The notes beneath the pieces were generated by a model. The model saw only the letters and a list, made by a program, of their open reading frames with translations, ran no database searches and was not told the origin of the DNA. From Candidatus Daviesbacteria bacterium RIFCSPLOWO2_01_FULL_39_23 (GTDB taxonomy: Bacteria > Patescibacteriota > Microgenomatia > Daviesbacterales > UBA10151), in contig MFDN01000005.1 of assembly GCA_001776935.1 (NCBI GenBank), forward strand, positions 68,893 through 132,892: a stretch of DNA of 64,000 nt, read 5' to 3'. A program made the translations under genes and the position numbers. This document shows positions 3,661 to 40,372 of this stretch, piece by piece; positions within the stretch are counted from its first letter, which is position 1, and each line of letters opens with the position of its first letter.

Positions 3661-6009
3661 TTATAACCTGGCTCTTGAGGCCAGTTCTGCCTCAACCTGC
3701 ACTACATCCTTACCATGCTTTAACCTGGATAATTCCCTTATTGCCTGACCGATTTGGGGATTTAACATTGCTTTCCATTTTTTCATATCTTTGGTGGTAT
3801 CCAAAGAAAACGGCACCACCGGCTCGCCGTTTACTATGGTTTTAATATAAACATGAGGTGATTCTATATTAACCAAATCTGCCTCTGAAAATGTGGGAGA
3901 AAATTCATGCTGCAGATAATTGGCATCATTGACTCCGACCCGGAAAGCAATCACTGTACCCACATTTCCGAATACGGCATTTTTTAAATCCTCCCCGATT
4001 TGACCGATAAACTGGTTGGCCACCACTAAATTAAGCCTGTATTTTCTGGCCTCCGATAAAATATCTGCAAAAGTATCTGTGGCAAAATTTTGAAACTCAT
4101 CAACATACAGGTAAAAATCCCTTCTTTGCTCCATTGCCATATCTGTCCGCGACATGGCTGCAGCTAAAATCTTCGGCACCAGGATCAAACCTAAGAAGTT
4201 GGAATTTTCTTCCCCTATTTTTCCTTTGGACAAATTCATAATCAGAATTTTTCCTTCATCCATCACTTTGCGCAAATTAAAAGCAGATTTTGACTGGCCA
4301 ATTATATTCCGCATCATTTTATTGGTGACAAAACGGCCGAATTTGGAAACCGTATAATCCAAAACCTCTGATTTATGAAAATCCGTAGTTTGGGCAATCT
4401 GATCTGTCCAGTAACGCCTGACAACCGGATCAGTAACTTTGGGCAGAAGCTCTTTTACAAACTCCGCATCAGTCATAATCCTAACCACCTCCACAAAAGT
4501 GGCTCCCGGATTACTCATGGCAGTTAACATGGCATTTCTGACACCGTGCTCAAAACGCGGACCGATAATACCGGTTTTATTTGGATCAAAAAGCTTGTAC
4601 ATCAAACCAATAATGGAGGACACCACAAAATGCTTTTGCTGCTCATCATATGCTTCAAGCATGTTTAATCCGAAAGGCCGGGTCATATCCGAAGGATCAA
4701 AATAAATTACGTCTTCTGCCCGCTCCGGAGGAATCAATTGCAAAAGCTCCTCTGCAGCATCACCGTGAGGATCGATAAAACACAAACCTTTACCTGCCCG
4801 AATATCCTGCAGCATCAATGTTTTTAAAAGTTCAGACTTGCCAGTACCGGTTCTTCCGATTATATACATGTGCTTACGCCTGTCATCTTCCGAAAGATAC
4901 ACCGGACGGTCCACTCCCCGGAAGACAGATCTCCCAAGGTATAGTCCGGAAACAGGTATTTTCTCCGGAGCAGGAGCCCGTTTCGAGGAAAGCCAGCTGA
5001 TATACGGAGTTTCTATAGACTTGTTCGGAAAATGAAAAATTGAAGCCAGCTCATCAGCTGTAAGTACCGGAACTTTGGAATACCGGGGCATATAACGATA
5101 GATAAAATCAGTTAAAAAGCCTTTTTCCGAATAAACCTTGCCGCCGGTAAAACCATTATAAGGACCGGAGAATTGCTCAAAAGCCGCTTTTATATTAGTT
5201 AAATGAGCTTTAGCGGATTCTTCTGAGGCGCTTGAGACGGCAATCCGCAAACTTACATCAAATCCGGCTTTAACAACTTTATTCTCAACCGCTTCAAGCT
5301 GTTTGGCATCAGGCGGAGCTTTGGGATTTTTTTCATCTCCCGGCTCTTTTTCTTTTTTTAGCCATTTTTTGCCTGCATCTTTCCAAACACTTCCTGAGGG
5401 AGAAATCATCAATTGGATTGCCGCTCCTTCATTAAGCTGCATCTTGGCAAGAGCAGAAGTAATTCCAGAAAGCGGATCTGTCGGCAGATCGCGAAAAGTC
5501 TTTATAGGAAAATGGTCAGCGCTTTTTAACTTCAATTGGGCATAAGCTGTCTCCCCTGTCTCAGAAAAGATATTGTATTCCGAAACTTCTTTAATTTCTG
5601 CATCAGGATAAGCTCCGTGAATTTGTTTTTCAATCAGATCCTGATGGGACTTATGGCAGGAAATAAAAAACCTGATAGACTCATGCAGGGCCACAATCTC
5701 AAAAGAAAGATGAGGCTGGGGGATAAAAGAGCTAAACATGCCTCCGGATTTTCTAAGGGAAGCCAGGGTGGCAAAAAGCTGTTCAGCGGCATCTATTTTG
5801 ATTTCGTTTCCCCTGGGGACTTTAATTTGCAAAAGCACAAACTGCAAAGAAGATTTTTCCCGGCCCCGGTATTTGATCCAACCCACCAGGTATTTTTTTA
5901 AAAACAAAAAAATACCCACAAAAAAGATAACAACCCCTAAGATTGCCACCATTGCCGCCGCTATTGAATTAAAATCTACTGCCCCCCGTGTTGTTTGTGT
6001 GACTTCCAT
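3661..6009 (-). CDS. VirD4/TraG/TraD-like type IV secretion coupling ATPase
   Basis: 782 aa. N-terminal TM segment; Walker A GRTGTGKS; Walker-B-like LYVDEFQNF; overall TraD/T4SS-DNA-transfer architecture. Confidence 0.7.
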   Translation of the reverse strand: MEVTQTTRGAVDFNSIAAAMVAILGVVIFFVGIFLFLKKYLVGWIKYRGREKSSLQFVLLQIKVPRGNEIKIDAAEQLFATLASLRKSGGMFSSFIPQPHLSFEIVALHESIRFFISCHKSHQDLIEKQIHGAYPDAEIKEVSEYNIFSETGETAYAQLKLKSADHFPIKTFRDLPTDPLSGITSALAKMQLNEGAAIQLMISPSGSVWKDAGKKWLKKEKEPGDEKNPKAPPDAKQLEAVENKVVKAGFDVSLRIAVSSASEESAKAHLTNIKAAFEQFSGPYNGFTGGKVYSEKGFLTDFIYRYMPRYSKVPVLTADELASIFHFPNKSIETPYISWLSSKRAPAPEKIPVSGLYLGRSVFRGVDRPVYLSEDDRRKHMYIIGRTGTGKSELLKTLMLQDIRAGKGLCFIDPHGDAAEELLQLIPPERAEDVIYFDPSDMTRPFGLNMLEAYDEQQKHFVVSSIIGLMYKLFDPNKTGIIGPRFEHGVRNAMLTAMSNPGATFVEVVRIMTDAEFVKELLPKVTDPVVRRYWTDQIAQTTDFHKSEVLDYTVSKFGRFVTNKMMRNIIGQSKSAFNLRKVMDEGKILIMNLSKGKIGEENSNFLGLILVPKILAAAMSRTDMAMEQRRDFYLYVDEFQNFATDTFADILSEARKYRLNLVVANQFIGQIGEDLKNAVFGNVGTVIAFRVGVNDANYLQHEFSPTFSEADLVNIESPHVYIKTIVNGEPVVPFSLDTTKDMKKWKAMLNPQIGQAIRELSRLKHGKDVVQVEAELASRARL

Positions 6010-6012
6010 TAT

Positions 6013-6318
6013 TTATGCAGCTTCCTTTTGTAAAAACCGCTTACCTGAAGCTATTGTAACCGGCACTGATCCTTCAACGCTCCGCTCTCCAGTTGATAAA
6101 CCACCACCCCCTGTCTGTTCTTTGATAGTGCTTCCTACTACGTACGTAGCATTACCAAGCATATCTCTTATATTCTCCAGTGGAGATTGATCGTTTGGAT
6201 TAACAGAAACCGGGGTAGTTGTGTATCCACCCTGATTTAATAAATCGCTAGCCTTTCGGTGCAATTCCGGCGTAGGGTCTGCAGATTCAATTATTCCTTT
6301 TGGGACAGGTTCATGCAT
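6013..6318 (-). CDS. Hypothetical protein
   Basis: 101-aa ORF immediately upstream of the coupling ATPase on the same strand; no recognisable motif. Confidence 0.3.
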   Translation of the reverse strand: MHEPVPKGIIESADPTPELHRKASDLLNQGGYTTTPVSVNPNDQSPLENIRDMLGNATYVVGSTIKEQTGGGGLSTGERSVEGSVPVTIASGKRFLQKEAA

Positions 6319-6337
6319 GAATATATTATCTCACATT

Positions 6338-6631
6338 TTAACGGATAAGTATCACCCTGCCGACAATCTGAGAATCATTAATTTCCCCAAAATTTCTGCT
6401 GTCCGTACTTTCCTTAGCATTATCTCCCCTCACATAAATCCTGCTATTTTTATACATATGCACGCGCTTGATTATTTCACGGCTATTTTGCCTGACAACA
6501 ACTATATCCCCTGCTTTCGGCTTTAAAAAAACATATGCCCAATTAAAACACAATACATCCTGACCCGGCTTTAGAGTTGGCAACATGCTGTTGCCATGAA
6601 TTATAAATTTGGAAAAAGGAAAAATAGCCAT
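6338..6631 (-). CDS. sodX: S26-family signal-peptidase-like protease, probable NiSOD maturation peptidase SodX
   Basis: 97 aa with GNSMLPTL (S26/S24 catalytic Ser motif). Lies directly downstream of sodN, the known sodN-sodX arrangement. Confidence 0.65.
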   Translation of the reverse strand: MAIFPFSKFIIHGNSMLPTLKPGQDVLCFNWAYVFLKPKAGDIVVVRQNSREIIKRVHMYKNSRIYVRGDNAKESTDSRNFGEINDSQIVGRVILIR

Positions 6632-6703
6632 CAGTCATCAGTCTTCAGCTATCAGACGCTTTAATTCTTGCTGATCTGATGACTGACAGCTGATAGCTGA
6701 CGA

Positions 6704-16139: not shown

Positions 16140-16529
16140 TTATTTAGCTGCCAATTTATTTAAATCTTTATCAAAAGTAAAAAGAGTAGAATTATTTTCT
16201 TTGGCTTTACATATCAAAAAACAATCAACAAAATCAATATTTTTACTTTTGCAAGCCTCCAACGCTTCTTTAAAAACCATCCTATCTTCAATATCGAGAT
16301 ATGAGGTCACTAAAAGAGTATTCACCTTCTCTATTACTTCAGCTTTGGGAAATTTATAGTATTTATCCAAGGCAAATAAGACTTCAAATATTATTATTTG
16401 GGGAACAAATATCCTTAGTTTTCCTGATTTAGCTTTAATTAATATATTTGCTGCTTCTTTGGCTTGACTTGGAATATCGTCTAGTAGAAACCTTAAAAAG
16501 ACATTTGCATCCAGTGTTGAAGATTCCAT
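16140..16529 (-). CDS. PIN-domain toxin (VapC-like)
   Basis: 129 aa. N-terminal LDANVFLRFLLDD; PIN acidic residues; downstream of and overlapping a small antitoxin gene. Confidence 0.65.
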   Translation of the reverse strand: MESSTLDANVFLRFLLDDIPSQAKEAANILIKAKSGKLRIFVPQIIIFEVLFALDKYYKFPKAEVIEKVNTLLVTSYLDIEDRMVFKEALEACKSKNIDFVDCFLICKAKENNSTLFTFDKDLNKLAAK

Positions 16530-17852: not shown

Positions 17853-18006
17853 GGATTTGGCAAACTTACTTGTTTTAAAGGATCTTCGACAAAAGAGGAC
17901 TGGTTATATTGGAATCGCAGAATGCCTATAAACCAATATTTATCTAATACCTATCTTCCAAATACCTTTTTCCCTAAAAGCCGGTACAGTTTGACGTTTT
18001 GCCGCA
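17853..18006. repeat. Repeat copy 2 (blocks B then A) overlapping the fic 3' end and its downstream region
   Basis: See copy 1; here block A is the genuine 3' end of the fic gene. Confidence 0.6.
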
Positions 18007-18812
18007 TTTAAAACTACAGGAGCTGGTTTACCGGTCTTTATTGCATACTCAGTTGCCTCAATAATCTTACTACCCTTCAAGTAGGCTATTCTTTTATGTA
18101 AAGCTTCCATAAGTGCAAGCGATATCAGTCTCTCCATTATTTGAGTTTTTTTGTCATCACGAAACTCTATAAAAGAACTGTAATAATCTGTTTTTTCTTT
18201 ATCGCGGATAATTATACCCGGAAAACCGAATCTATAAAGCTGATAATTTATAATTACCCGTCCAATTCTGCCATTACCATCGTTAAAAGGATGAATTGTT
18301 TCGAATTGCAAATGGAATTTAGCAACCTTGTCTGCAAAATATGTACTTTGATCGCTTGAGTATTCAATTAAAGCTTCTTCAATCATTCTTTCTATATGCT
18401 CCGGAGGCGGAGCAATAAAACTGCCAACGCGCACATATTCCCCTTTTTTACGTAATCTGCCGGCAATCTTTTCATCAATATTTCCTATTAACATCTGATG
18501 AAACAACAATATAGTTTCTTTGGAAAGTTCTTCCGCAATCTTACCCTGGATATATTCCATAACCCGAGCTAAATTTTTTGCTTCAAACACTTCACGTAAG
18601 GAGACATTTTTTGATATTTCCATCTCTAGAAGGATTTTTTCGGTTTCTTTAAGAGTTAATGTGGAGTTTTCTATAGCATTGGAGTTATAAACACTTTCTG
18701 GGATTTCAGCTTCATCAATAATTTTAAGTAAAGACAGCTTGCCTATCTTTAAACGATCATATTCTTTTTTTAGGGTTTCTATTCTTTTTTGAAGGAAAAG
18801 AGGAGTTGGCAT
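17940..18812 (-). CDS. Fic-family protein (class II, canonical motif)
   Basis: 290 aa. HPFNDGNGRIGR (HPFx[DE]GNGRxxR) plus an N-terminal inhibitory-type SNAIEN motif. Confidence 0.85.
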   Translation of the reverse strand: MPTPLFLQKRIETLKKEYDRLKIGKLSLLKIIDEAEIPESVYNSNAIENSTLTLKETEKILLEMEISKNVSLREVFEAKNLARVMEYIQGKIAEELSKETILLFHQMLIGNIDEKIAGRLRKKGEYVRVGSFIAPPPEHIERMIEEALIEYSSDQSTYFADKVAKFHLQFETIHPFNDGNGRIGRVIINYQLYRFGFPGIIIRDKEKTDYYSSFIEFRDDKKTQIMERLISLALMEALHKRIAYLKGSKIIEATEYAIKTGKPAPVVLNAAKRQTVPAFREKGIWKIGIR

Positions 18813-19011
18813 GATGAAATTATTATATCAGATTCACGTTATTTTGTCAAATTAGCGTGAATCGACTGCCATTTACGGTATAAATTCATGCTTTTTGACT
18901 CAAGAAGCGTAATTTTAATATGAGCACGCTCCTGCTTTGCAGTAACCATGAGTTTATTACATATTATCAAGATATTGACTCCTGCGTATCATTATGATAC
19001 GCTAGAAACAT

Positions 19012-20064
19012 ATGAATGATACGCAAGTAAACAACCGGCAGACTAAATTACTGGAATTTTTATTAGTAAACTCTCCGTCTTCAAGATCCAAAATCGAAAA
19101 CCTCCTGAAAGATGACAATGTTTCCCGAATAACCATTATTCGAGACTTAAATTATCTTATCAGCGTTGGTTTAATTGAACAGGTTGGGGGCGGTAAGTAT
19201 GTAAAATACCGTCTCAAGCCAGAGAAAGAATTACTTATTCCCATAGATCTAGAAAAATACTTCTCGACAGTAACCGATACTAGAAAAATCAAATATCCTA
19301 CATTTAATTTTAATTTGATTAATCGTTTGATGGGGTTATTTTCCAAAGACGAATTGGAGTTGTTTGAGACTGGAAAGGACAAATTGAAAAATAAATTTTC
19401 TTCCTTGGACAAAACTATATTAAAACGTGAACTGGAAAGGTTTACGATTGAACTTTCATGGAAATCTTCCCAAATAGAAGGCAACACCTATTCTCTCCTC
19501 GAAACTGAGGAGTTAATAAAAAATAAAAAGGAGGCAAAAGGACACGATAAAAGTGAGGCAATAATGATTCTCAATCACAAGGCAGCCTTTGACACGATTT
19601 TAGAAAAGAAAGAGAGCTTTAAAGAAATCTCGGTTGCGGACATTAGGAGGATTCACTCGGAACTGGTAAGAAAATTGAATATAAAATCTGGAATTAGGGA
19701 ATCTGCCGTGGGAATTACCGGAACTAAATATCGACCCCTAGATAATAAATGGCAAATAGAGGAAGCTCTAAATAAATTTGTGGTTCAGACAAAAAAAATC
19801 AAATCAGTACCAGAAAAAGCTTTAATTTTTCTAGCTGTTATTGCTTATTTGCAACCTTTTACTGACGGCAATAAAAGAACCTCCAGAATGATCAGCAATG
19901 CAGTTCTCCTTTCAAACGGCTATTATCCTCTTTCCTATAGGAGCGTAGACGAAGTTGAATATAAAAAGGCTTTAATTCTTTTTTATGAACAAAATAATCT
20001 TTACCATCTAAAAAGAATCTTTTTAGAACAACAACGTTTTGCGATCGAAAACTACTTTCTCTAA
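19012..20064 (+). CDS. Fic-family protein with N-terminal winged-HTH and a degenerate active-site motif
   Basis: 350 aa. N-terminal DeoR-like wHTH. Fic core reads QPFTDGNKRTSR (His to Gln, Gly to Lys), so it is probably catalytically altered. Confidence 0.7.
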   Translation: MNDTQVNNRQTKLLEFLLVNSPSSRSKIENLLKDDNVSRITIIRDLNYLISVGLIEQVGGGKYVKYRLKPEKELLIPIDLEKYFSTVTDTRKIKYPTFNFNLINRLMGLFSKDELELFETGKDKLKNKFSSLDKTILKRELERFTIELSWKSSQIEGNTYSLLETEELIKNKKEAKGHDKSEAIMILNHKAAFDTILEKKESFKEISVADIRRIHSELVRKLNIKSGIRESAVGITGTKYRPLDNKWQIEEALNKFVVQTKKIKSVPEKALIFLAVIAYLQPFTDGNKRTSRMISNAVLLSNGYYPLSYRSVDEVEYKKALILFYEQNNLYHLKRIFLEQQRFAIENYFL

Positions 20065-20350
20065 ACAGAAAGATCAACGACTGGCTCAAAACATTGGAGC
20101 GACATACAAGGAAGCTGACGACCAACTGAAACGCTACTACCTCAATTTGTTCTTTGGAGGTGGTGGTTTCTTTGTTAAGGATGGAAAGATTGTCAAAGCG
20201 AAGCTCTCAAACGACGTAAAACCCCTCATCAAAGATGGGTCAGTTCGAGTAAGAATGAATTGGCTCGAACGATGGTATGTTTTCCGAAGGACAGACTGGG
20301 TAAACTACCTGGAATATCCAGAATTTACAACTAAGGAAGTGACTAGGTTT

Positions 20351-21151
20351 TTACAAATCTAGCTTGCTAGCCTCTTTGTTTACTCGACCGACTTCGCCAA
20401 GATAGCGTTTTGAAAGATTGTTAAGCTGTTTTGCAATTCCTAGCTTCAGTAACTTATTAGATCTTTCCACAATCGTTAAAAAGAAATCAAATGAGGCAAT
20501 GAGGTCTTCCTCCACCCAGCTTTCACTCCGTCCAATGTCTACGGTATAACCTTTATCATGAGCCTTAACATAATCATTCATTGTTCTGACAGCCGAATGG
20601 GTGATATTGGATTGCAAATAATAAACGGTTTGATAAGCTCCCTCTCTACCAATCTCCTCCGCCATTTGCCTGATTGGTTTATCAGACCATCCCATTCTGC
20701 CATAATTATGCTTTTCCTGAACCAGCTTGGCATATTTTTCTACCTCTTCGATAGTAGTATCCCCAGGTTTGGGGTGAAGTTTCCTCTCCTCAAATAGCTT
20801 TGCGAAGGTAGGCACAGTTTTGGCGTAATCATACATTTTTTTCCTTATTATCGAATCATAATGGAAATATCTTAAAACTCTTTTGTTAGTAGGATCTTTC
20901 AGGATATAAAGGAGCGTAATTGAAAGATCAAAAAGAGAGCGGGTTAGTATTGCAGCGTCCTCACCATACCCCTGCGCACAAAGAAATAAAATAGCGCCAT
21001 GAGTTTTATAAGCCTTACCAAACATAAAGGTGCTAAGAGCAACTTTTGGAGTAATTTTGTGAAACTCCTTGTTCATAACACTATCAACTATCTTCCGAAG
21101 CTCTTCGTTAAAATCAAAGAGGTCTTTGTGTTTCTGATAGATTATATTTGG
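20351..21151 (-). CDS. Hypothetical protein, last gene of the candidate defence operon
   Basis: Probable start at MPNIIYQ (ATG overlapping the stop of the upstream gene); about 266 aa; no recognised motif. Confidence 0.45.
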   Translation of the reverse strand, partial: PNIIYQKHKDLFDFNEELRKIVDSVMNKEFHKITPKVALSTFMFGKAYKTHGAILFLCAQGYGEDAAILTRSLFDLSITLLYILKDPTNKRVLRYFHYDSIIRKKMYDYAKTVPTFAKLFEERKLHPKPGDTTIEEVEKYAKLVQEKHNYGRMGWSDKPIRQMAEEIGREGAYQTVYYLQSNITHSAVRTMNDYVKAHDKGYTVDIGRSESWVEEDLIASFDFFLTIVERSNKLLKLGIAKQLNNLSKRYLGEVGRVNKEASKLDL

Positions 21152-21158
21152 CATAGAT

Positions 21159-21833
21159 TTACCTTTCATCGAGGGCATAAGGACGAGTAATGGCACTAGG
21201 GGGAACTTGCCCACCACCTGATTGCGAAGAAGAAGTTGATGCACAGGTGTTTGTTGAAATAGGTTTTGGATAACCGCTTGCACCACTTGATCGTGTCGTG
21301 GAGGTTACAACCCTAATTGGAAGCTGATCGATCAAATCCTTATACCGAGAGTTTTTATTACCAATAGAATTTTCAGCTTGATTTACCCTTTGGGTATATT
21401 TATCGTCCTCTAATTCCTGCTTAAACTTGTCCAAAGATTCCAAAAAGTCATTAACTAGGGTTTCTGCATCTAGAACTGCCCCTTCGACTTCTTTATAGAC
21501 AGCTGGTTTCCCTCCATCTCTGCTTATACCACCCCTTGCGAAATATTCGTGTGCCAACCCATTTCTAAAAATATCCCTAAGAATTTCTACGGGGTAATCG
21601 CTTGGGTTGGTAAAACACTTGGAAATATACTCCTGGACACTTTGGGCGAAACTGGTGTAACGACCCAGAAGGAAGCTGCCCAAATATTCCATGTAGGCTA
21701 AAACACAAAGGGCTAAGGGGAAGTTAATATTCCCAATCGCAGCGGGCTGCGGTCTTATTCTGTCCCGCATATTTTCTAAGTCTTTTTTAATGTAACCAAA
21801 GACTACTGTGCCTAAGAATGTCTGCCTATCCAT
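21159..21833 (-). CDS. HEPN-like protein (Rx4H motif), third gene of the candidate defence operon
   Basis: 224 aa. FRNGLAHEY fits the HEPN R-x4-6-H motif; C-terminal S/T/G-rich tail. Confidence 0.4.
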   Translation of the reverse strand: MDRQTFLGTVVFGYIKKDLENMRDRIRPQPAAIGNINFPLALCVLAYMEYLGSFLLGRYTSFAQSVQEYISKCFTNPSDYPVEILRDIFRNGLAHEYFARGGISRDGGKPAVYKEVEGAVLDAETLVNDFLESLDKFKQELEDDKYTQRVNQAENSIGNKNSRYKDLIDQLPIRVVTSTTRSSGASGYPKPISTNTCASTSSSQSGGGQVPPSAITRPYALDER

Positions 21834-21835
21834 AT

Positions 21836-23629
21836 TTACTTTCCTTTTATCGAATTAAAGAACTTGCTGACCTCATCTGGTAATCTGCTTAAGTCAATAG
21901 ACTTTATTACTTCAAATTGAAAACCCTTATATGTTAGGTTTTTAACCTTACTCGACTCCGCTGATAGACGGTCATATAGTTTTTTGGTCATTACTTTTCC
22001 GTCAATTTCCATCAATTTAGTTGAGCTGTCCTTTTCTATCGCTTCAAGATGGTTTGTTACATCTTGTGCCTTGTATTGTCTTTCGTCTGAACTGGCGGCG
22101 TCTGCTATCGCTTCAATATCAAAAAGAAAAACATTCTCGAGCGTCTTGTATGGAGTTACTAAAACATTATTGCCAATCTGCCCCAGAACACCTTCGTCAT
22201 CTTTGTCAATTAAGGCTAAGATGTTCAGGGTAGAAGGTTGTTGGGTGAGAGTGCCGATAAATGTCCTAAAAGCATCACTTGTCTGGATTACTCCTGGTTT
22301 ACTCCCAGAACCAGGTTTATTGTCTGTTCCTGCAGGTATGAATACAACACAATTTTTTAGAGGATCTATCAACCTCTGGTAGACCTTAAAGTCCTCTAGA
22401 TGGTCTTTGGCATTTGGGATACCCTCAACATAAACAATCTTAGGGGCAAGAAAGGCTAAATCGAATCTTTTACCAAGAGAGTTGAGAAGCTCAACTCTAG
22501 TGGTCAAATTGTCAACCTTTTCAATAGACTTAGAGTCACTAGTAATCTGATAAACATTCTCGGTGTTAGCGGAAATAAAGTCTGAGGAATGAGTAGAGAC
22601 AAGACAGCTAAAATCCTTCGCTTTAAGAAAAACACCGTTCATAAATTCTGCTAATCTAGTAACATACTCTGGATGAAGGTGAATGTCTGGTTCGTCGATA
22701 AGCACTATCGGTTTGAACGCTTGGCGTTCCCATTGAATTAACATTGCAGCCAAACCGATTACCTGCCGTTCGCCTGAGCTGGCAAACTGGATTGGATAGC
22801 TTCTGTTTATTTTTTTATTAGTCATTCGGAATTTCATTTCCCCTTTCTCAGCTTGAATTTTGTCGAATGAAAGCTCTAGGGGATAAATGATCTCATTGAT
22901 TCTTGAAAGGGTATCTTCTAATTCGGGAAAGGCTACCTTTTGTTGAGAAAAGACTCTCCAAACTGCCATCATTGCTAATCGATTGAGTAGACTACCTAAT
23001 TGAATATTGCTTCTAGTGGTTCTTTGTCTTATGTCAAAATCTCCAGTAACAACCTCTGTCATTTCAACATCACGAGGCGCAGCTCCTAAAAAGGAAGTGC
23101 CTCCCTCGCCAATGTCTTGGAGGGGTTTAACAAACACGCCTAATACTTTATGCCTACCAAGTTCGGATAACCAAGAAGGAATGTCGTTTTGAGAACTGGC
23201 ACCTATGAACTTACGAGTTGATGGTTGCTGAGGAGAAAAGTCAGAAGGTATTGACAGTTCAACAGTAAAAAAATACCTTCCATTTTTCTTCTGAAGGTCG
23301 TTTTGTATCGTTTGCAAAACTGTTTCCCTTGAAGTAAAAGCATTAGGACTTTTTTCAACCAGTATTTCCGCTAGATGTCCAAGGTCGTCATCGCTTAACG
23401 AAACAGAGGCTCGCCACACCGCCTCTGCCCCCGTAATACCACTAACAACTGTCGTATCAATTTGATTTATGTCTACACTATTCAAAAGGAAATTAGCCAC
23501 TTCAAGTATTGTTGACTTGCCTGTCCCGTTCTGACCAGCAAGAACAATAAATCCAGTAAGTTCAGACGCCTTAACTTCAAAGTTCTCAAAACCTCTAAAA
23601 CCAGTAATTTTTATTTCTTCCACTCTCAT
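21836..23629 (-). CDS. OLD-family nuclease-like protein: ABC-type ATPase (AAA_15/21) fused to a TOPRIM-like C-terminal domain
   Basis: 597 aa. Walker A LAGQNGTGKST; Walker B / D-loop VLIDEPDIHLHP; C-terminal IVYVEGIPNAKDH and ALIDKDDEG (TOPRIM-like E and DxD). Confidence 0.65.
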   Translation of the reverse strand: MRVEEIKITGFRGFENFEVKASELTGFIVLAGQNGTGKSTILEVANFLLNSVDINQIDTTVVSGITGAEAVWRASVSLSDDDLGHLAEILVEKSPNAFTSRETVLQTIQNDLQKKNGRYFFTVELSIPSDFSPQQPSTRKFIGASSQNDIPSWLSELGRHKVLGVFVKPLQDIGEGGTSFLGAAPRDVEMTEVVTGDFDIRQRTTRSNIQLGSLLNRLAMMAVWRVFSQQKVAFPELEDTLSRINEIIYPLELSFDKIQAEKGEMKFRMTNKKINRSYPIQFASSGERQVIGLAAMLIQWERQAFKPIVLIDEPDIHLHPEYVTRLAEFMNGVFLKAKDFSCLVSTHSSDFISANTENVYQITSDSKSIEKVDNLTTRVELLNSLGKRFDLAFLAPKIVYVEGIPNAKDHLEDFKVYQRLIDPLKNCVVFIPAGTDNKPGSGSKPGVIQTSDAFRTFIGTLTQQPSTLNILALIDKDDEGVLGQIGNNVLVTPYKTLENVFLFDIEAIADAASSDERQYKAQDVTNHLEAIEKDSSTKLMEIDGKVMTKKLYDRLSAESSKVKNLTYKGFQFEVIKSIDLSRLPDEVSKFFNSIKGK

Positions 23630-24135
23630 ATTAAAAGCTCTCCAATTCGTTTTAATATTTTTCCTTCTGGGGGATAAGCAGAATAAGATGCTTTATCTAT
23701 CTCGAAAGTCTGCCCGTTTTGCTTTAAGACTAGGCGGGGCGTATCGCTGCGATTGTTGTTCCAAACATAACTGTTGCCAGTAAATAAATGATAATCAGCC
23801 CCGATGAAATCCTCTGGAGACAAACTTTCTAGGGGAATTTCACCGCCAGAATGAACCCGCACAATTCGCCCGACTCCAAGATTACCTGAAAATCCCATGA
23901 CTTTTTCCCATACCCCGTTTGGATAGGGAGGCGTATAGGCAACATGCTGGAGTTCAATACTGTTGAGAGAAAAAGACTCGTCACCAATGTTCTTAAAATC
24001 AACCCATTCGCCAGCTAGTTGAGAGAAAGGGACATAATTACCAAGGCGATCTCTGCCAGATGGGTTTGGTTTTACTTGGGTAACATTAAGCCGTTTCATA
24101 GTAATTTTAATCCTTTGTAATGTAGGACTTGACAT
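23626..24135 (-). CDS. Lamin-tail-domain (LTD)-like protein, first gene of the candidate defence operon
   Basis: 169 aa (start may be the internal MKRLNV). VKPNPSGRD...GEWVDFKNIGDESFSL resembles the LTD core (NPxGxD...EWIELxN). Overlaps the ATPase start by 4 nt. Confidence 0.4.
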   Translation of the reverse strand: MSSPTLQRIKITMKRLNVTQVKPNPSGRDRLGNYVPFSQLAGEWVDFKNIGDESFSLNSIELQHVAYTPPYPNGVWEKVMGFSGNLGVGRIVRVHSGGEIPLESLSPEDFIGADYHLFTGNSYVWNNNRSDTPRLVLKQNGQTFEIDKASYSAYPPEGKILKRIGELLI

Positions 24136-24166
24136 TACTGTAAAATTATCATAAAGTTATCATACT
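24136..24166. promoter_or_regulatory. Divergent promoter/operator region between the defence operon and the lexA-like gene
   Basis: 31-bp intergenic segment containing TACTGT and the direct repeat TTATCATA-AAG-TTATCATA; candidate repressor operator. Confidence 0.3.
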
Positions 24167-24766
24167 ATGCCAGTAAAAGTCAAGCCCATTACAGGTAGAC
24201 AAAAAGAGGCGCTCGATTTTATCAATTCCTTTATCCAAGATAATGGATACGCTCCCTCTCTTCGTGAGTTAGCAGCCTTTCTGAAAACCGACAACATTAG
24301 CACGGCTCATTACTTTGTAAAAGAACTTGAAAAGAAGGGTTACCTCAAACGAGATTACTATAAAAACAGAGGGATCACTCCTATTCTTCAAAAACAAACA
24401 GTTCCACTCTTGGGTTATATTGCCGCTGGTGCGCCAATAGAACCAATTGAAGACTCGGAGCCAATACAAGTGCCAACTAACATTAAATTGGCTACAAATC
24501 AGTCTTATTACGCTCTCAAAGTCAAGGGTGATAGCATGATAGATATGGGAATTCTGGACAAAGATATTGTCCTTATTAAGCATCAAATGACAGCAGATGT
24601 CGGCGATGTGGTTGTGGGAATTACAGAAGACGGAGCAACTCTAAAAATTCTAGGAAGAAAAAATGGAAAAACTATCCTTGAACCACGCAACATAAATTAT
24701 AAATCAATAATTCCTAGACAACTTGAGGTTCGAGGAGTTTTTGTAGGTTTAATAAGGGCTGAATAA
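24167..24766 (+). CDS. lexA: LexA-like autocleavable repressor (HTH plus S24 peptidase)
   Basis: 199 aa. N-terminal wHTH (RQKEALDFI...PSLRELAAFL), Ala-Gly cleavage site (IAAGAP), catalytic GDSM and a conserved Lys. Confidence 0.8.
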   Translation: MPVKVKPITGRQKEALDFINSFIQDNGYAPSLRELAAFLKTDNISTAHYFVKELEKKGYLKRDYYKNRGITPILQKQTVPLLGYIAAGAPIEPIEDSEPIQVPTNIKLATNQSYYALKVKGDSMIDMGILDKDIVLIKHQMTADVGDVVVGITEDGATLKILGRKNGKTILEPRNINYKSIIPRQLEVRGVFVGLIRAE

Positions 24767-24802: not shown

Positions 24803-25588
24803 ATGAATTCAATTAATGACTATCTCAATAAAATAATTTGCGGTGACTGCATTGAAGTCATGCAGAAGATGCCCAATAAAAGCATCGATCTAGCTGTTAC
24901 ATCTCCTCCTTACAATCTTAAAAATTCTACTGGTAATGGTATGAAAGACGGTAGAGGTGGTAAGTGGGCAAACGCAGCTCTCCAGAATGGTTATAGCCAT
25001 CATGATGACTGTATGCCTCACGAAAAATATGTGGCTTGGCAAAGAAAGTGCTTAGAAGAAATGATGAGATTGTTAAAAGACGATGGAGCAATTTTTTACA
25101 ATCACAAATGGCGTGTCCAAAACGGACTGCTTCAAGATAGACAAGACATTGTTTCGGGCTTTCCTGTACGACAAATAATAATTTGGCATCGCAACGGAGG
25201 TATTAATTTTAATAAAGGTTATTTTTTACCCACCTATGAGGTGATTTATCTAATTGCAAAAAAGAACTTCAAGCTAGCACCAAAGGCAAACGCCCTCGGA
25301 GATGTGTGGGACATGGGACAAGACTTAAACAACCCTCACCCCGCACCATTCCCTGTTGAATTGATTGAAAGGATTATCGGATCAACGACTGCCGAAATTG
25401 TTCTAGACCCATTCATGGGTTCAGGTACAACAGCAGTTGCTGCAAAAAATCTCGGCAGAAAGTATATCGGAATTGATGTCTCTCCTGAATATTGCCAGAT
25501 GGCTGAAGAAAGGATCAAAAAGGGACATTTCAATGGCAAGAAACAACAGGATCTTCTTTCTTTGTTTCCCCAAGACTGTTCCGTGTGA
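24803..25588 (+). CDS. DNA methyltransferase, N4/N6 class (PF01555-like), probably m4C
   Basis: 261 aa. DLAVTSPPYNL (SPPY catalytic motif) and DPFMGSGTT AdoMet motif. Confidence 0.85.
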   Translation: MNSINDYLNKIICGDCIEVMQKMPNKSIDLAVTSPPYNLKNSTGNGMKDGRGGKWANAALQNGYSHHDDCMPHEKYVAWQRKCLEEMMRLLKDDGAIFYNHKWRVQNGLLQDRQDIVSGFPVRQIIIWHRNGGINFNKGYFLPTYEVIYLIAKKNFKLAPKANALGDVWDMGQDLNNPHPAPFPVELIERIIGSTTAEIVLDPFMGSGTTAVAAKNLGRKYIGIDVSPEYCQMAEERIKKGHFNGKKQQDLLSLFPQDCSV

Positions 25589-25606
25589 GATAATTAGCTT
25601 AAAGAT

Positions 25607-26398
25607 ATGCAATTATATACAAAAGACGAACTAATTAAGAAACTGAAACAACTTGCCGAAATGGGTTGGATACCAAATGGGAGATTTGGCAACCACGGAG
25701 GAATCGGCAACACTCTTGAGGATTTTTTGGGTATTACAGAAAATAATTTACCAATACCTAATGCTGCCGAGTGGGAGCTAAAAACACAACGGGCAAACAC
25801 ATCGTCGCTAACAACTCTTTTTCATATCGAGCCATCACCAAGAGCCGTAGGTTTTGTTCCAAAAGTATTGTTGCCACTCTATGGGTGGTCGCACCAAGAG
25901 GCAGGAAAACTTTACAAAGATGGCGAAATGAGTTTCAGGCAGACAATCCACGGACTATCCCACAGCGACAGGGGTTTTATCGTTAAAATCGATCGAGCTG
26001 CCAAAAAAGTGCTTATTTCCTTTGATGCAACCAAAGTAGCAGAAAGACATTCTGAATGGCTTCGGGGTGTTGAACAAAAAATGGGGTTAGGGGAACTCAA
26101 TCCACAACCTTACTGGGGATTCGACGATCTAAAACATAAAGCAGGAACTAAACTTCTTAATTGTTTCTATGTGCAAGCGGAAGTAAAAAAGGAAGGTGAA
26201 AAAGAGTTTTACTGGTATAAAAAGGCGCAAATGCTACAAAAGTTCAAATTTGATGGATTACTGGAGGCACTTGAGAAAGGCGCTCTCCTAGTGGATTTTG
26301 ATGCAAGGACAGGTCACAACCATGGCACAAAATTCAGGCTTAGACAAAATCACCTACCTATGCTCTACGAAAAAGTGACCACCGTTGTGAATTCTTAA
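25607..26398 (+). CDS. Type II restriction endonuclease of the MvaI/BcnI family
   Basis: 263 aa. N-terminal ...AAEWELKTQRANTSSLTTLFH and C-terminal LLVDFDARTGHNHGTKFRLRQNH align by eye with conserved BcnI/MvaI blocks (GEFELK...LTLFH; LVMDLCID...GPHLRI). Confidence 0.65.
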   Translation: MQLYTKDELIKKLKQLAEMGWIPNGRFGNHGGIGNTLEDFLGITENNLPIPNAAEWELKTQRANTSSLTTLFHIEPSPRAVGFVPKVLLPLYGWSHQEAGKLYKDGEMSFRQTIHGLSHSDRGFIVKIDRAAKKVLISFDATKVAERHSEWLRGVEQKMGLGELNPQPYWGFDDLKHKAGTKLLNCFYVQAEVKKEGEKEFYWYKKAQMLQKFKFDGLLEALEKGALLVDFDARTGHNHGTKFRLRQNHLPMLYEKVTTVVNS

Positions 26399-37589: not shown

Positions 37590-37674
37590 GGAGGGATCGC
37601 ATAGTGGCCTAGTGCGCGGGCTTGGAAAGCTCGTATACCGCAAGGTATCGTGGGTTCAAATCCCACTCCCTCCG
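37590..37674 (+). tRNA. tRNA-Ser (GGA)
   Basis: Acceptor GGAGGGA/UCCCUCC; anticodon loop UUGGAAA; long variable arm; T-loop UUCAAAU. Confidence 0.85.
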
Positions 37675-37701
37675 CAGGTTGTCATAGTGTATAATAATTT
37701 T

Positions 37702-37959
37702 ATGTTTAATAACTGGCAGATGCCGAATTTAGGAGCAGGAATATATTTGCTGATTTTGTGGGAAATTTTTTGGAAGGGAGTGGGTCTTTGGAAATCTGCC
37801 AAAAAAGGCGACCTGATCTGGTTTTTGGCAATATTTTTGATTAATTTTTTTGGCATTATTCCCCTCTTTTACCTTTGGAAAACCAAACAATTAGACGGAG
37901 TTATTAAAGATTTTCAAAATTTCTTTAAATCGCTGTTTTTAAGGTTTCAAAAGAAGTAA
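37702..37959 (+). CDS. Small membrane protein (2 TM)
   Basis: Downstream part of ORF 37579-37959, beginning at MFNNWQ after the tRNA; hydrophobic. Confidence 0.3.
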   Translation: MFNNWQMPNLGAGIYLLILWEIFWKGVGLWKSAKKGDLIWFLAIFLINFFGIIPLFYLWKTKQLDGVIKDFQNFFKSLFLRFQKK

Positions 37960-38580
37960 ATATTCCCTGTTCCCTGCTCCACCCAGGATTGGGGAATCAA
38001 TACAATTTACAATGTACAATTTACAATGTACAATTTTTTCCAGCACCTGATTTTTTACTCTTTCTGCAATTTCAGAAGGCAAAACACCTTTTATGAGATC
38101 TCTTTTATCAGCTTCGTAATGAGGTTTGAGTAAAGCAATAATCAAACCATCCGGTTTAAGGAAATTCTTAACAATAGGTAAAATCAGCTCCAGTTTGGTC
38201 CAGCCGGCATCAATTGTGATTAAGTCAACTCCATCCACCTCGGAGGAGTCATGGCTTCCGCTTCGCTCCAGCCTGCCACCATCCGAGGTGTTTTCAAAGT
38301 CACCTTCCAGGTGGGCTTTGACTCCTGGAAGGTGTGTCAGGCGAAGAATATTTGTCCGCTCCATTACTACTACTCTGGGATCATTGCGCAGTTTCCAGGC
38401 CAGTTCCCCATACGCAGTATCCAAAGCATAAACTTTTCTTGCTCCATTTTGCAGTAAACAATCTACAAATCCGCCTGTTGAGGAACCTACGTCGAGGACG
38501 ACGTAATCTTCAATCCTCAATTTCCAATTTTCAATAGCGGATTGCAGTTTTATTCCGCCCCGGGAAACAAATTGATTCAT
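37939..38580 (-). CDS. TlyA-like rRNA 2'-O-methyltransferase (FtsJ fold, no S4 domain)
   Basis: SRGGIKLQSAIENW...VLDVGSSTGGFVDCLLQNGARKVYALDTAYGELAWKLRNDPRV matches the conserved TlyA/FtsJ motifs. Confidence 0.7.
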   Translation of the reverse strand: MNQFVSRGGIKLQSAIENWKLRIEDYVVLDVGSSTGGFVDCLLQNGARKVYALDTAYGELAWKLRNDPRVVVMERTNILRLTHLPGVKAHLEGDFENTSDGGRLERSGSHDSSEVDGVDLITIDAGWTKLELILPIVKNFLKPDGLIIALLKPHYEADKRDLIKGVLPSEIAERVKNQVLEKIVHCKLYIVNCIDSPILGGAGNREYLLLLKP

Positions 38581-38987
38581 ATCTCCTTCCATCTGTCTAC
38601 TGCTTTTTTTAGCAGTTCCTTATCCTGATTAAAAGTCAACTTCTTCATGGCTTCCTCCTGCTCATACCAGCCGATATCACTAACTTCCCAGTCATGGTCT
38701 TTAATATCTCCTGAGACATATTTCATTAAAAAATAAGTCACTACTTTAAAAATCTTCACATTATTAAAAGTATAGACATATTTGGAATAACCTACCTTCC
38801 CAGCAATCTCAGCCAACACTCCACCCTCTTCCCGGACTTCTCTTAAGGCAGACTCTTCCGTTGTTTGCTCCGGATGATCAAGCAAGCCTTTAGGAAAGCT
38901 CCAATGATGATTTTGGGAATGCTGAGTCAGAAGCACCTGCCCCTTATCATTAAAAACAATTCCTCCTGCTGAAAATTCTTGTTTCAC
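38577..38987 (-). CDS. NUDIX hydrolase
   Basis: 136 aa. Nudix box GLLDHPEQTTEESALREVREEGGV. Confidence 0.8.
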   Translation of the reverse strand: MKQEFSAGGIVFNDKGQVLLTQHSQNHHWSFPKGLLDHPEQTTEESALREVREEGGVLAEIAGKVGYSKYVYTFNNVKIFKVVTYFLMKYVSGDIKDHDWEVSDIGWYEQEEAMKKLTFNQDKELLKKAVDRWKEI

Positions 38988-39088
38988 GTTTTTAATTCTA
39001 TCTTTTTTAATTGTGCCCTCGGCGGGAATTGAATCCTTCGATCCTTCGACATACTCAGGACTCAGGACCTTCGGCCCACATCAATCAG

Positions 39089-39162
39089 TATGCCCGAGAG
39101 GACTTGAACCTCCAACCTCAAGATCCGGAATCTTGTGCTCTATCCAATTGAGCCACGGGCAC
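39089..39162 (-). tRNA. tRNA-Arg (CCG)
   Basis: Acceptor GUGCCCG/CGGGCAU; anticodon stem CAAGA/UCUUG with loop UUCCGGA; T-arm GGAGG-UUCAAGU-CCUCU. Confidence 0.75.
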
Positions 39163-39170
39163 ATATTTTT

Positions 39171-39255
39171 TGGCGGAGGGTGCAGGAGTCGAACCTGCTA
39201 GGGCTTTCACCCGATGGTTTTCGAAACCATTACCTTACCGTTCGGCCAACCCTCC
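39171..39255 (-). tRNA. tRNA-Ser (CGA)
   Basis: Acceptor GGAGGGU; anticodon loop UUCGAAA; long variable arm; CCA encoded. Confidence 0.8.
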
Positions 39256-39406
39256 GAATGCGGGTCGCATTCGTAAATGCGACACCTCCGAAAACTTGTC
39301 TTTTGGAAATTTATGCCAAGTTTTCTTCGGCGCGCCCGGCGGGATCTTTACTTCGTAAAGCATAGTGCACTTCGTTTGCACTATGAACGAACCCACGAGC
39401 GCTTTG

Positions 39407-39478
39407 CGCCCCTGGCGGGAATCGAACCCACATTACGAGATCCGCAATCTCGAGGTTTATCCGTTAGCCTACAGGGAC
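39407..39478 (-). tRNA. tRNA, anticodon GCG (Arg) by manual fold
   Basis: Acceptor GUCCCUG/CAGGGGC; anticodon stem CGAGA/UCUCG with loop UUGCGGA; T-arm GUGGG-UUCGAUU-CCCGC. D-stem has one mismatch. Confidence 0.5.
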
Positions 39479-39536
39479 AACATGGGTATTTTAACAGAAA
39501 TCCAGTCTGAAAGCTGAAGCCTGTGACAACTGAAAA

Positions 39537-40148
39537 CTATCTATGGGTATTTTCCAGGGGGAAGTGTTTTTGTAAACCTTCTGACCATTTTTCCATCCAG
39601 CTTTTATACGGCACCTCAACATACGGCAAAAATTTGGCTACAGTTTTTTTAACTTTTTCTTCATCATGCTCTTCCAGTACCAACATAAGCTGAGCCGGAA
39701 ACCTCAGGCGCGTTTGAATATGCAAAATATTTGAACCATCTTTTTTCTTAAACCAAAAAGCATCCAGGTAATGCCAAAGGTAAAAATCTTCCCCGATAGT
39801 AATACCTTGTGTTGAAATCCTGTAAGTAACTTTATGAGGCGGCACAAAAGCCAAAACATAGGCCACAAAAGCTAAGGATAAAAGTGTGGCGATAAGTAAA
39901 AATTCCTTAGCCAAAAGCAATATTAAAACCAGCAAAATCACAATTATCGCCAAAGTGGTGTAGTAAGACCGGTCTTTTTTTCTAAAAGGACGGGATGGCG
40001 CTTCCCACGAGAGTAACGTTTCAATCTCCTCTGTCTCCATCATCTTAGGAGTAAAAAATTCATGGCCAAGATTTTCCTCAGGAGGATTTTTTGGATGCTC
40101 CTTTTTAGGAGGATTCTGCTGGTGTTTTTCAGGATTATCCTTGGGCAT
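39537..40148 (-). CDS. Hypothetical membrane protein (2 TM, charged termini)
   Basis: 203-aa ORF. Confidence 0.4.
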   Translation of the reverse strand: MPKDNPEKHQQNPPKKEHPKNPPEENLGHEFFTPKMMETEEIETLLSWEAPSRPFRKKDRSYYTTLAIIVILLVLILLLAKEFLLIATLLSLAFVAYVLAFVPPHKVTYRISTQGITIGEDFYLWHYLDAFWFKKKDGSNILHIQTRLRFPAQLMLVLEEHDEEKVKKTVAKFLPYVEVPYKSWMEKWSEGLQKHFPLENTHR

Positions 40149-40198
40149 GTTGATTTTAGTTTAACTTTAAATTCCTAAACTGTAAAGACCGATTGCTG

Positions 40199-40283
40199 CG
40201 GAGGCGGCAGGATTCGAACCTGCGAGCCCTTTCGAGCCAATGGTTTTCAAGACCATCTCCATAAACCGCTCGGACACGCCTCC
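40199..40283 (-). tRNA. tRNA-Ser (UGA)
   Basis: Acceptor GGAGGCG; anticodon loop CUUGAAA; long variable arm; T-loop UUCGAAU. Confidence 0.8.
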
Positions 40284-40288
40284 TTAGG

Positions 40289-40372
40289 CGGAGGGTACAG
40301 GATTCGAACCTGTGTGACATTTCTGCCAACGGTTTAGCGAACCGTCTCCTTAAACCACTCGGACAACCCTCC
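40289..40372 (-). tRNA. tRNA-Ser (GCU)
   Basis: Acceptor GGAGGGU; anticodon stem ACGGU/ACCGU with loop UCGCUAA; long variable arm. Confidence 0.8.

Follow-up and report, generated by a model that had tools for sequence, protein, structure and literature searches.

Four tightly packed genes on the minus strand of contig MFDN01000005.1, from Candidatus Daviesbacteria bacterium RIFCSPLOWO2_01_FULL_39_23, a member of the candidate phyla radiation (CPR), raise the question of whether they form one defence system or have come to lie side by side as separate parts. The window analysed here is a 64,000-nucleotide stretch of that contig. The genes, numbered 1 to 4 in the direction of transcription, encode a lamin-tail-domain (LTD)-like protein, an OLD-family ABC ATPase-TOPRIM protein, a HEPN-fold protein and a DUF5677 protein (Table 1). 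The original prediction had joined them into a single undescribed system of LTD, OLD, HEPN and unknown components, and it is this claim that is not supported: each of the genes is found without the others. We consider it likely, with real room left for the alternatives weighed below, that in Daviesbacteria-like CPR bacteria the variable locus next to lexA is a defence hotspot and that the four genes are a mosaic within it. This reading is carried by what was observed directly: which domains the proteins have, how each gene is distributed independently of the others, the linkage to lexA and the replacement of cargo.

Co-occurrence of the four genes is confined to loci in which gene 2 is at least 92% identical to that of the window. 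Among five independent contexts of gene 2, genes 1 and 3 stand alongside it only in a 92%-identical relative (L006; loci are cited by such numbers). Two 59%-identical relatives (L001, L003) have unrelated neighbours, and two at 41% identity (L002, L005) are solitary among housekeeping genes. A metagenome scan with gene 1 yielded 80 loci, and gene 2 is present only in the one that is a copy of the same organism; it is also present in one of 17 gene 3 contexts. Relatives of gene 3 occur without gene 1 or gene 2 in 13 species-representative genomes from several phyla, and at 76-85% identity gene 3 turns up in L084 (78%), L166 and L168 (76%, in another operon). At 81-90% identity gene 4 stands alone (L021, L023 and L085), and gene 1 at 63-82% identity carries other cargo. 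The blocks of nucleotide similarity for genes 2, 3 and 4 start and stop within a few bases of the gene boundaries, which points to gene-sized modules that have been reshuffled.

It is quite improbable, on these data, that the four genes make up one integrated and undescribed defence system whose parts depend on each other. Such a system would account for the tight junctions, and in L006 genes 1, 2 and 3 are indeed found together, at 78%, 92% and 80% identity and with the same junctions, gene 4 being represented by a 26-codon remnant after gene 3. Genes 1-3 are kept with the same junctions in L007 as well, and the longest contig listed is 6360 nt in each case for a gene 2 relative at 94% identity, one of gene 3 at 82% and one of gene 4 at 87%, so that the three probably lie on one contig. 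However, every gene is also found without the others, often at high identity, and the co-occurrences are limited to near relatives, where shared ancestry accounts for them. The tight packing to which the original prediction had drawn attention is real, but it is not rare in this DNA: in a count based on crude open reading frame (ORF) calls, 11 of the 49 co-directional neighbour pairs within the window are separated by no more than 5 nt.

Gene 1 had been called LTD-like from a core reading NPSGRD...EWVDFKN. The core is present and the family matches the Pfam LTD model, although the window protein itself, at 25.4 bits (E = 2e-5), does not reach the gathering score of 34.3. Because an LTD match at E <= 0.01 is found for 46 of the 56 full-length members (best 8.3e-13), the family can be described as LTD-like, and its Acidobacteriota members are named 'lamin tail domain-containing protein' by NCBI. 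An exhaustive search gave 141 cluster representatives related to gene 1; PADLOC, NCBIfam and PHROGs models return nothing for it. A LexA homologue immediately adjoins gene 1 relatives in 24 of the 66 loci that have enough upstream sequence. In 14 of these, which comprise every locus of the close clade, lexA is divergent, and in the other 10 it is co-directional and abutting. The stop codon of gene 1 overlaps the start of the next gene as ATGA in 12 of the 14 close-clade loci with downstream sequence, and that next gene belongs to one of at least seven unrelated families. These include gene 2; an Old-type OLD nuclease (PADLOC Old, 3e-26); a UvrD helicase of GajB-like type with a Cas4-like nuclease after it; two distinct proteins with an Rx4H motif; a relative of a 368-aa protein of L084; and a 184-aa protein. 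In L096/L097, a Ppl-like PHP-ATPase (2e-24) begins 117 nt after gene 1. The literature searched yielded no link between lamin-tail domains and LexA, and a lexA-LTD hotspot with start/stop-overlap junctions appears to be unreported there.

A small DUF2188 gene (76-82 aa) also recurs beside lexA, the LTD gene or both, on either side (L006:3060-3299, L025:5760-5993, L101, L106 and others), and it lies directly downstream of gene 1 relatives in at least eight more distant loci.

The replacement of cargo is seen most directly when L091 is compared with L094. The two loci share 93% nucleotide identity over 5.1 kb, up to the very stop codon of gene 1. LexA is 99% and the gene 1 protein 90% identical between them, yet their cargos are unrelated, and the sequences become similar again only in an 81-nt element at the cargo's far end. 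After the LTD gene, L094 carries an Old-type nuclease with the Pfam OLD-like_TOPRIM domain (L094:5131-7011), and L091 a GajB-like helicase with a Cas4-like nuclease (L091:5471-8649). In L096 the corresponding position is occupied by a Ppl-like protein with PHP and ATPase parts (L096:5592-8585). The alternative cargos match Old, Ppl, GajB-like, Cas4-like and PbeA-like models. Further multi-gene cargos, unannotated, follow the LTD gene in L088, L092 and L095.

In the window, the far end of the cargo is marked by the same element, here about 95 nt long and located right after gene 4. Its plus strand reads ...WLERW.FRRTDWVNYLEYPEFTTKEVTRFLQI followed by a stop, which resembles the C-terminal ~32 residues of a protein (W..FRTTDW.NYLEYPEFT.KE.NRFLQ, then a stop); substitutions look synonymous-biased, and the open frames span only 32-65 codons. 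The element follows differing cargos in six hotspot loci (L087, L088, L091, L092, L094 and L095) and is also found right after solo copies of gene 4 (L023/L024, L085) and in L084. There is no Rfam match within 19800-24400, an interval that includes it. Candidate readings are a remnant of a gene, a micro-ORF and a recombination site. An integron-like reading was considered and set aside: genes 2, 3 and 4 have no repeats between them (gaps of 2-4 nt), neither an integrase nor attC-like repeats are seen at the locus, and the conservation is protein-like.

Defence hotspots flanked by conserved core genes are familiar from E. coli, Pseudomonas and Vibrio, and from the P2 old/tin locus. The present locus resembles them in its conserved flanks, with lexA and gene 1 on one side and the ~95-nt element on the other, and in the unrelated defence cargos found in near-identical backgrounds. 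It differs in that its left boundary is exactly a stop codon that shares bases with the cargo's start codon, in that the flank is the gene of an SOS repressor, and in having a CPR bacterium as its host.

The ATGA junction could be read in another way, with the LTD protein as a shared working part of a polymorphic defence locus, for instance its sensor, adaptor or regulator, and with translational coupling to effectors that can be exchanged: the PARIS-like nuclease and HEPN/DUF5677 here, and Old, a GajB-like helicase with a Cas4-like nuclease, and Rx4H-motif proteins elsewhere. The persistence of the junction despite so many unrelated next genes speaks for such a role, as do the partners, which are typical defence effectors, and the distant lexA-gene 1 operons, which also precede variable genes (SMODS, metallo-beta-lactamase, RmuC-like). 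Nevertheless, the divergence of gene 1 follows LexA and the backbone and not the cargo, many distant loci have only the small DUF2188 gene or nothing co-directional after gene 1, relatives of gene 2 occur without gene 1 nearby, and gene 1 has no PADLOC match. A working role for the LTD protein is therefore unlikely, and gene 1 and lexA are better seen as the conserved flank of the mosaic.

The region between lexA and gene 1 contains a TTGACA at 24129-24134, an inverted repeat at 24120-24135, two palindromic TTATCATA boxes (24146-24154 and 24157-24165, 11 nt apart) and promoter-like hexamers on both strands. The inverted repeat has the form ATGT-N8-ACAT in the window and ATGTC-N6-GACAT in most relatives, and L092 has the compensatory variant TTGTC...GACAA. 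The whole region is nearly invariant across more than 10 related loci, and L025 keeps it although a DUF2188 gene, not gene 1, lies downstream. The boxes and the inverted repeat are candidate LexA operators. All four genes are probably co-transcribed from this control region, which they would have in common with lexA, and their expression may thus be under LexA/SOS control.

In a further alternative, the locus would not be immune in nature at all and would belong to a LexA/SOS DNA-damage regulon, with the variable genes after gene 1 acting in repair or recombination; its strong link to lexA and its conserved region resembling an operator would fit this. Several cargo families do resemble repair proteins, the relevant genes being those for the OLD-type ATPase-nuclease, the UvrD-like helicase, the SMC-like ATPase, the RmuC-like protein and the metallo-beta-lactamase, and an archaeal OLD-family ATPase is reported to have a cell-cycle rather than a defence role (PMC12796447). 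The exchange of cargo between loci with 99% identical LexA is, however, what defence hotspots typically show and core repair genes do not. Among the cargos there are also HEPN, Schlafen/AlbA_2, SMODS, Old and Ppl matches, and the flanks hold restriction-modification, Fic and PIN genes. We regard a repair locus as very improbable.

Within the mosaic, the first cargo is gene 2. Its product consists of an ABC ATPase (residues ~1-370), a DUF4435/TOPRIM-like domain (~395-500) and a helical tail. The Walker A (GQNGTGKST), Walker B (LIDEPDIHLHP), YVEG and IDKD motifs named in the original prediction are all present, and the OLD-family ATPase-TOPRIM architecture proposed from them is borne out by Pfam and PADLOC matches, by invariant residues and by Foldseek. 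The ATPase part matches Pfam AAA_15 and AAA_21, and its Walker A, signature and Walker B motifs are kept across 16 homologues, as in the N-terminal ABC ATPase of OLD nucleases. Invariant residues in the same 16 sequences are K38, D312/E313, E402, D413, D475, D477 and E498, so the conserved Glu and DxD of a TOPRIM domain are found at E402 and D475-x-D477. An AlphaFold 2 model (pLDDT, a per-residue confidence score, of 77) has a TOPRIM-like beta-alpha-beta-alpha-beta arrangement at 397-491. Its top Foldseek matches are GajA, Eco8 OLD and TsOLD, each full-length, over 651-797 alignment columns. The TOPRIM motifs also align, weakly, with the OLD-TOPRIM of the Old-type cargo in L094. The family is small, with about 20 sequences, of which one is from Patescibacteria, another from a Candidatus Daviesbacteria and the rest from metagenomes.

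Gene 2 is an OLD-family ATPase-TOPRIM protein, and of the systems described so far the one closest to it is PARIS in its fused AriA-AriB form. AriAB is its best PADLOC match (2.6e-24, 84 bits), ahead of AriA, PtuA, retron ATPase-Toprim, Old and GajA, with an alignment that extends to position 594 of 694, and it is the top match for three diverse relatives as well (P0009, P0017 and P0019, at 3e-27, 1e-33 and 9e-37). Among the ABC ATPase defence models, AriAB and AriA rank first for gene 2 and for these three relatives, and AriA is among the best PDB matches, with a sequence match at 2.6e-11. The C-terminal domain matches Pfam DUF4435 in two of 12 relatives (best 3.7e-5); a PDB sequence search with the C-terminal profile gave chance matches only, and no AriB chain. 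The acidic residues of AriB (E26, D30, D88, E90 and E122) are paralleled in gene 2 by E402, D413, D475, D477 and E498, and AriA and AriB are occasionally fused into one protein (PMC11464382). PARIS senses phage anti-restriction proteins and cleaves tRNA (PMC11464382), and the restriction-modification system that adjoins the gene 2 locus would fit anti-restriction sensing, a likeness that is circumstantial. Gene 2 differs from PARIS in being very divergent. Its activation must also differ, since a fused nuclease cannot leave the AriA scaffold as it does in E. coli PARIS.

The OLD nucleases (P2 Old and TsOLD of Class 1, GajA of Class 2 and Eco8 of Class 3) similarly have an ABC ATPase at the N-terminus and a TOPRIM at the C-terminus of a single chain, and the PADLOC Old, ATPase-Toprim_I-B and GajA models also match gene 2. 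These scores are lower than that for AriAB, and gene 2 has no Pfam OLD-like_TOPRIM match, unlike the Old-type cargo of L094. A Gabija system is not indicated, as no UvrD/PcrA-like helicase corresponding to GajB is found in the operon or its flanks. Nor is a Class 3 retron, as there is no reverse transcriptase-like ORF nearby and no Rfam match in the interval given above. Gene 2 had been described as lacking its usual partners. This is correct for the UvrD-like helicase, but the DUF4435 partner is probably contained within gene 2 itself, given that its nearest relative is a fused AriA-AriB. A scan of viral contigs with gene 2 returned generic ABC-ATPase matches only. Gene 2 is thus best placed as a divergent single-polypeptide member or variant of a known OLD/PARIS kind, and it is probably self-sufficient, because its 41%-identical relatives are solitary and its 59%-identical relatives stand beside unrelated neighbours.

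The second cargo comprises gene 3 and, where present, gene 4. For gene 3 the HEPN assignment stands: the FRNGLAHEY motif is present, its Rx4H pattern is invariant and the fold is a helical bundle. There are 117 homologues in all. Across 43 homologues R90, G92, L93 and H95 never vary, and N91 and A94 hardly do. The predicted structure has a confident helical core, and residues 1 to ~170 adopt the helical-bundle fold of HEPN proteins; the tail is disordered and rich in Ser, Thr and Pro. Pfam, NCBIfam, PADLOC and PHROG models give no match. Gene 3 resembles HEPN toxins and abortive-infection proteins (HEPN/MNT, AbiV and Csm6/LsoA-type) in its helical bundle and its invariant Rx4H (R90...H95). It differs from them in a small beta insertion, in the long tail with its SGASGYPxPI motif, and in its partner, which, where there is one, is a DUF5677 protein. 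It does not belong to a HEPN/MNT pair, for its neighbours are gene 2 and the DUF5677 gene, and neither brings a nucleotidyltransferase domain.

The SGASGYPxPI motif, in the part of the tail encoded at 21159-21330, is kept across most of the family, and the rest of the tail is not conserved. In L084, three successive Rx4H proteins are encoded at 3960-6672: a 368-aa protein (RNRIVH), a 305-aa protein (RDVVIH) with a zinc-ribbon-like CxxC pair at its C-terminus, and the 78%-identical relative of gene 3. The 368-aa family is also found directly after the gene 1 relative in L112. Several further proteins were considered as relatives of gene 3 and rejected. The 178-aa and 185-aa proteins encoded downstream of the gene 2 relatives of 59% identity are unrelated to it, and the 186-aa protein of L025 and the 174-aa protein of L009 have the Rx4H motif only, with no significant profile similarity.

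Gene 4, in which the original prediction had recognised no motif, matches Pfam DUF5677 at 1e-37, with 130.2 bits against a gathering cutoff of 27.1 and coverage of profile positions 4-165 of 166. It has 67 homologues, some with SEC-C or HTH_17 fusions at the N-terminus. PADLOC and NCBIfam give nothing for it, PHROGs contain one unannotated family only (1.3e-5), and a PDB sequence search with its profile found chance matches only. The possibility that DUF5677 is akin to the HEPN family of gene 3 was rejected on profile comparison, which showed no relation. In the single relevant publication found, a preprint, DUF5677 is reported to be enriched beside serine recombinases that mark defence loci (PMC12632615).

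Searches with local profile hidden Markov models place gene 4 next to gene 3 in three of 17 gene 3 contexts, one of them holding a remnant only, and gene 3 next to gene 4 in two of six intact gene 4 contexts. In L166 the pair follows a DUF5655 gene, with 4-nt gaps, and in L017, a gammaproteobacterial metagenome-assembled genome, a gap of 1 nt separates gene 3 from a divergent DUF5677 gene. As each gene is also found alone, the pair is recurrent yet facultative. Neither the gene 3 family nor its link to DUF5677 is described in the libraries searched.

In the mosaic, gene 1 and lexA form a conserved flank, with differing cargo genes joined directly to the gene 1 stop codon. From the likenesses above we infer how the cargo might work. 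In gene 2, an AriA-like ABC ATPase would be fused to an AriB-like DUF4435/TOPRIM nuclease; by analogy with PARIS, the ATPase part would sense a phage-encoded trigger and license the nuclease, and cleavage of tRNA would then shut down translation and lead to abortive infection. The gene 3 protein, if it is an RNase as its HEPN homology suggests, would cleave RNA, possibly restrained or directed by its facultative DUF5677 partner. Genes 3 and 4 would then probably be a toxin/regulator-like or abortive-infection pair.

Several observations weigh against the mosaic or against parts of it. The retention of genes 1-3 in L006 and L007 may reflect a functional link among them within this lineage, and the precise ATGA junction repeated from gene 1 to its cargo could mean joint function. 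Most of the contigs are short metagenome fragments, whose ends partly limit what an absence can mean. Scans of viral contigs gave no homologues of genes 1, 3 or 4. The AriAB score of gene 2 is modest, and neither Pfam DUF4435 nor OLD-TOPRIM is matched by the window protein itself. Finally, the one DUF5677 gene with an experimental test, in Enterococcus, gave no phage defence (PMC12632615).

A wider claim can be put forward only tentatively. In CPR bacteria, and perhaps beyond them, the lexA-LTD pair could mark a polymorphic defence locus wired to SOS, with the LTD protein as a common first component, ATGA-coupled to PARIS-like, Old, helicase-nuclease and HEPN-type effectors, and with HEPN and DUF5677 as a new two-gene abortive-infection or toxin-antitoxin module. 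Immunity in CPR bacteria (Patescibacteria) is poorly charted and largely untestable in culture, and lexA together with a small LTD gene may offer a simple genomic marker for collecting candidate defence genes from their metagenomes. If gene 2 is a working single-chain relative of PARIS, it would extend PARIS to ultra-small bacteria and provide a natural fusion in which to study the licensing of a nuclease that is not released. The position beside lexA suggests that defence cargo may come under the control of SOS, and the pairing with HEPN would be a first functional lead for DUF5677, a domain of unknown function.

Table 1. Features of the lexA-adjacent locus, in window coordinates
Feature	Coordinates	Strand	Description
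Gene 1	23626..24099	minus	157-aa lamin-tail-domain-like protein, lexA-linked
Gene 2	21836..23629	minus	597-aa OLD-family ABC ATPase-TOPRIM; closest model is fused PARIS AriAB
Gene 3	21159..21833	minus	224-aa HEPN-fold protein with R-N-G-L-A-H motif
Gene 4	20351..21154	minus	267-aa DUF5677 protein
lexA	24167..24766	plus	199 aa; divergent from gene 1 and part of the conserved backbone
lexA/gene 1 intergenic control region	24100..24166		candidate divergent promoters and LexA operators
Restriction-modification pair	24803..26398	plus	N4/N6 methyltransferase and MvaI/BcnI endonuclease, co-directional with lexA
Conserved element, ~95 nt	20261..20356	plus	far end of the variable cargo

All four predicted minus-strand ORFs are found in the window. 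The sequence agrees with the ATGA overlap of genes 1 and 2 at 23629-23626 and with a 2-nt gap from the stop of gene 2 (21836) to the ATG of gene 3 (21833). Two starts differ from those first given. An ATG for gene 4 at 21151, overlapping the gene 3 stop, was a misreading: the stop occupies 21161-21159, and the gene 4 ATG follows 4 nt later, at 21154-21152, which is the start used in all database gene calls and in homologues. The in-frame ATGs at 21178 and 21169 would overlap gene 3, and nucleotide similarity to homologues starts only at about 21156-21163. Gene 1 had been taken to begin at 24135, as its longest ORF does; the ATG at 24099 is the most likely start, since homologues align from that Met, and in L091 an ATG upstream of the gene 1 start runs into a stop.

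The island context that had been described, with two Fic genes, a divergent LexA and a restriction-modification system, is confirmed by Pfam domains. The lexA product matches LexA_DNA_bind (5e-14) and Peptidase_S24 (3e-20), and the restriction-modification pair matches N6_N4_Mtase (4.5e-45) and MvaI_BcnI (4.7e-64). lexA lies 36 nt upstream of this pair, and the same trio is found in L087 and L089. Other types of restriction-modification system follow lexA in L006 and L025. LexA may head restriction-modification operons in these bacteria. Just beyond the four genes are a PIN-domain gene (16140-16529) and the two Fic-domain genes (within 17940-20064). In L009, gene 3 has relatives of both on its flanks, 290-aa Fic relatives are found near DUF5677 genes in L025/L026, and one 350-aa Fic relative adjoins gene 4 in L085.

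Elsewhere in the window, ARAGORN places a tRNA-Ile with the anticodon TAT at 2828-2899, which is an unusual way of reading AUA in bacteria, and six Ser/Arg tRNAs are clustered at 37590-40372.

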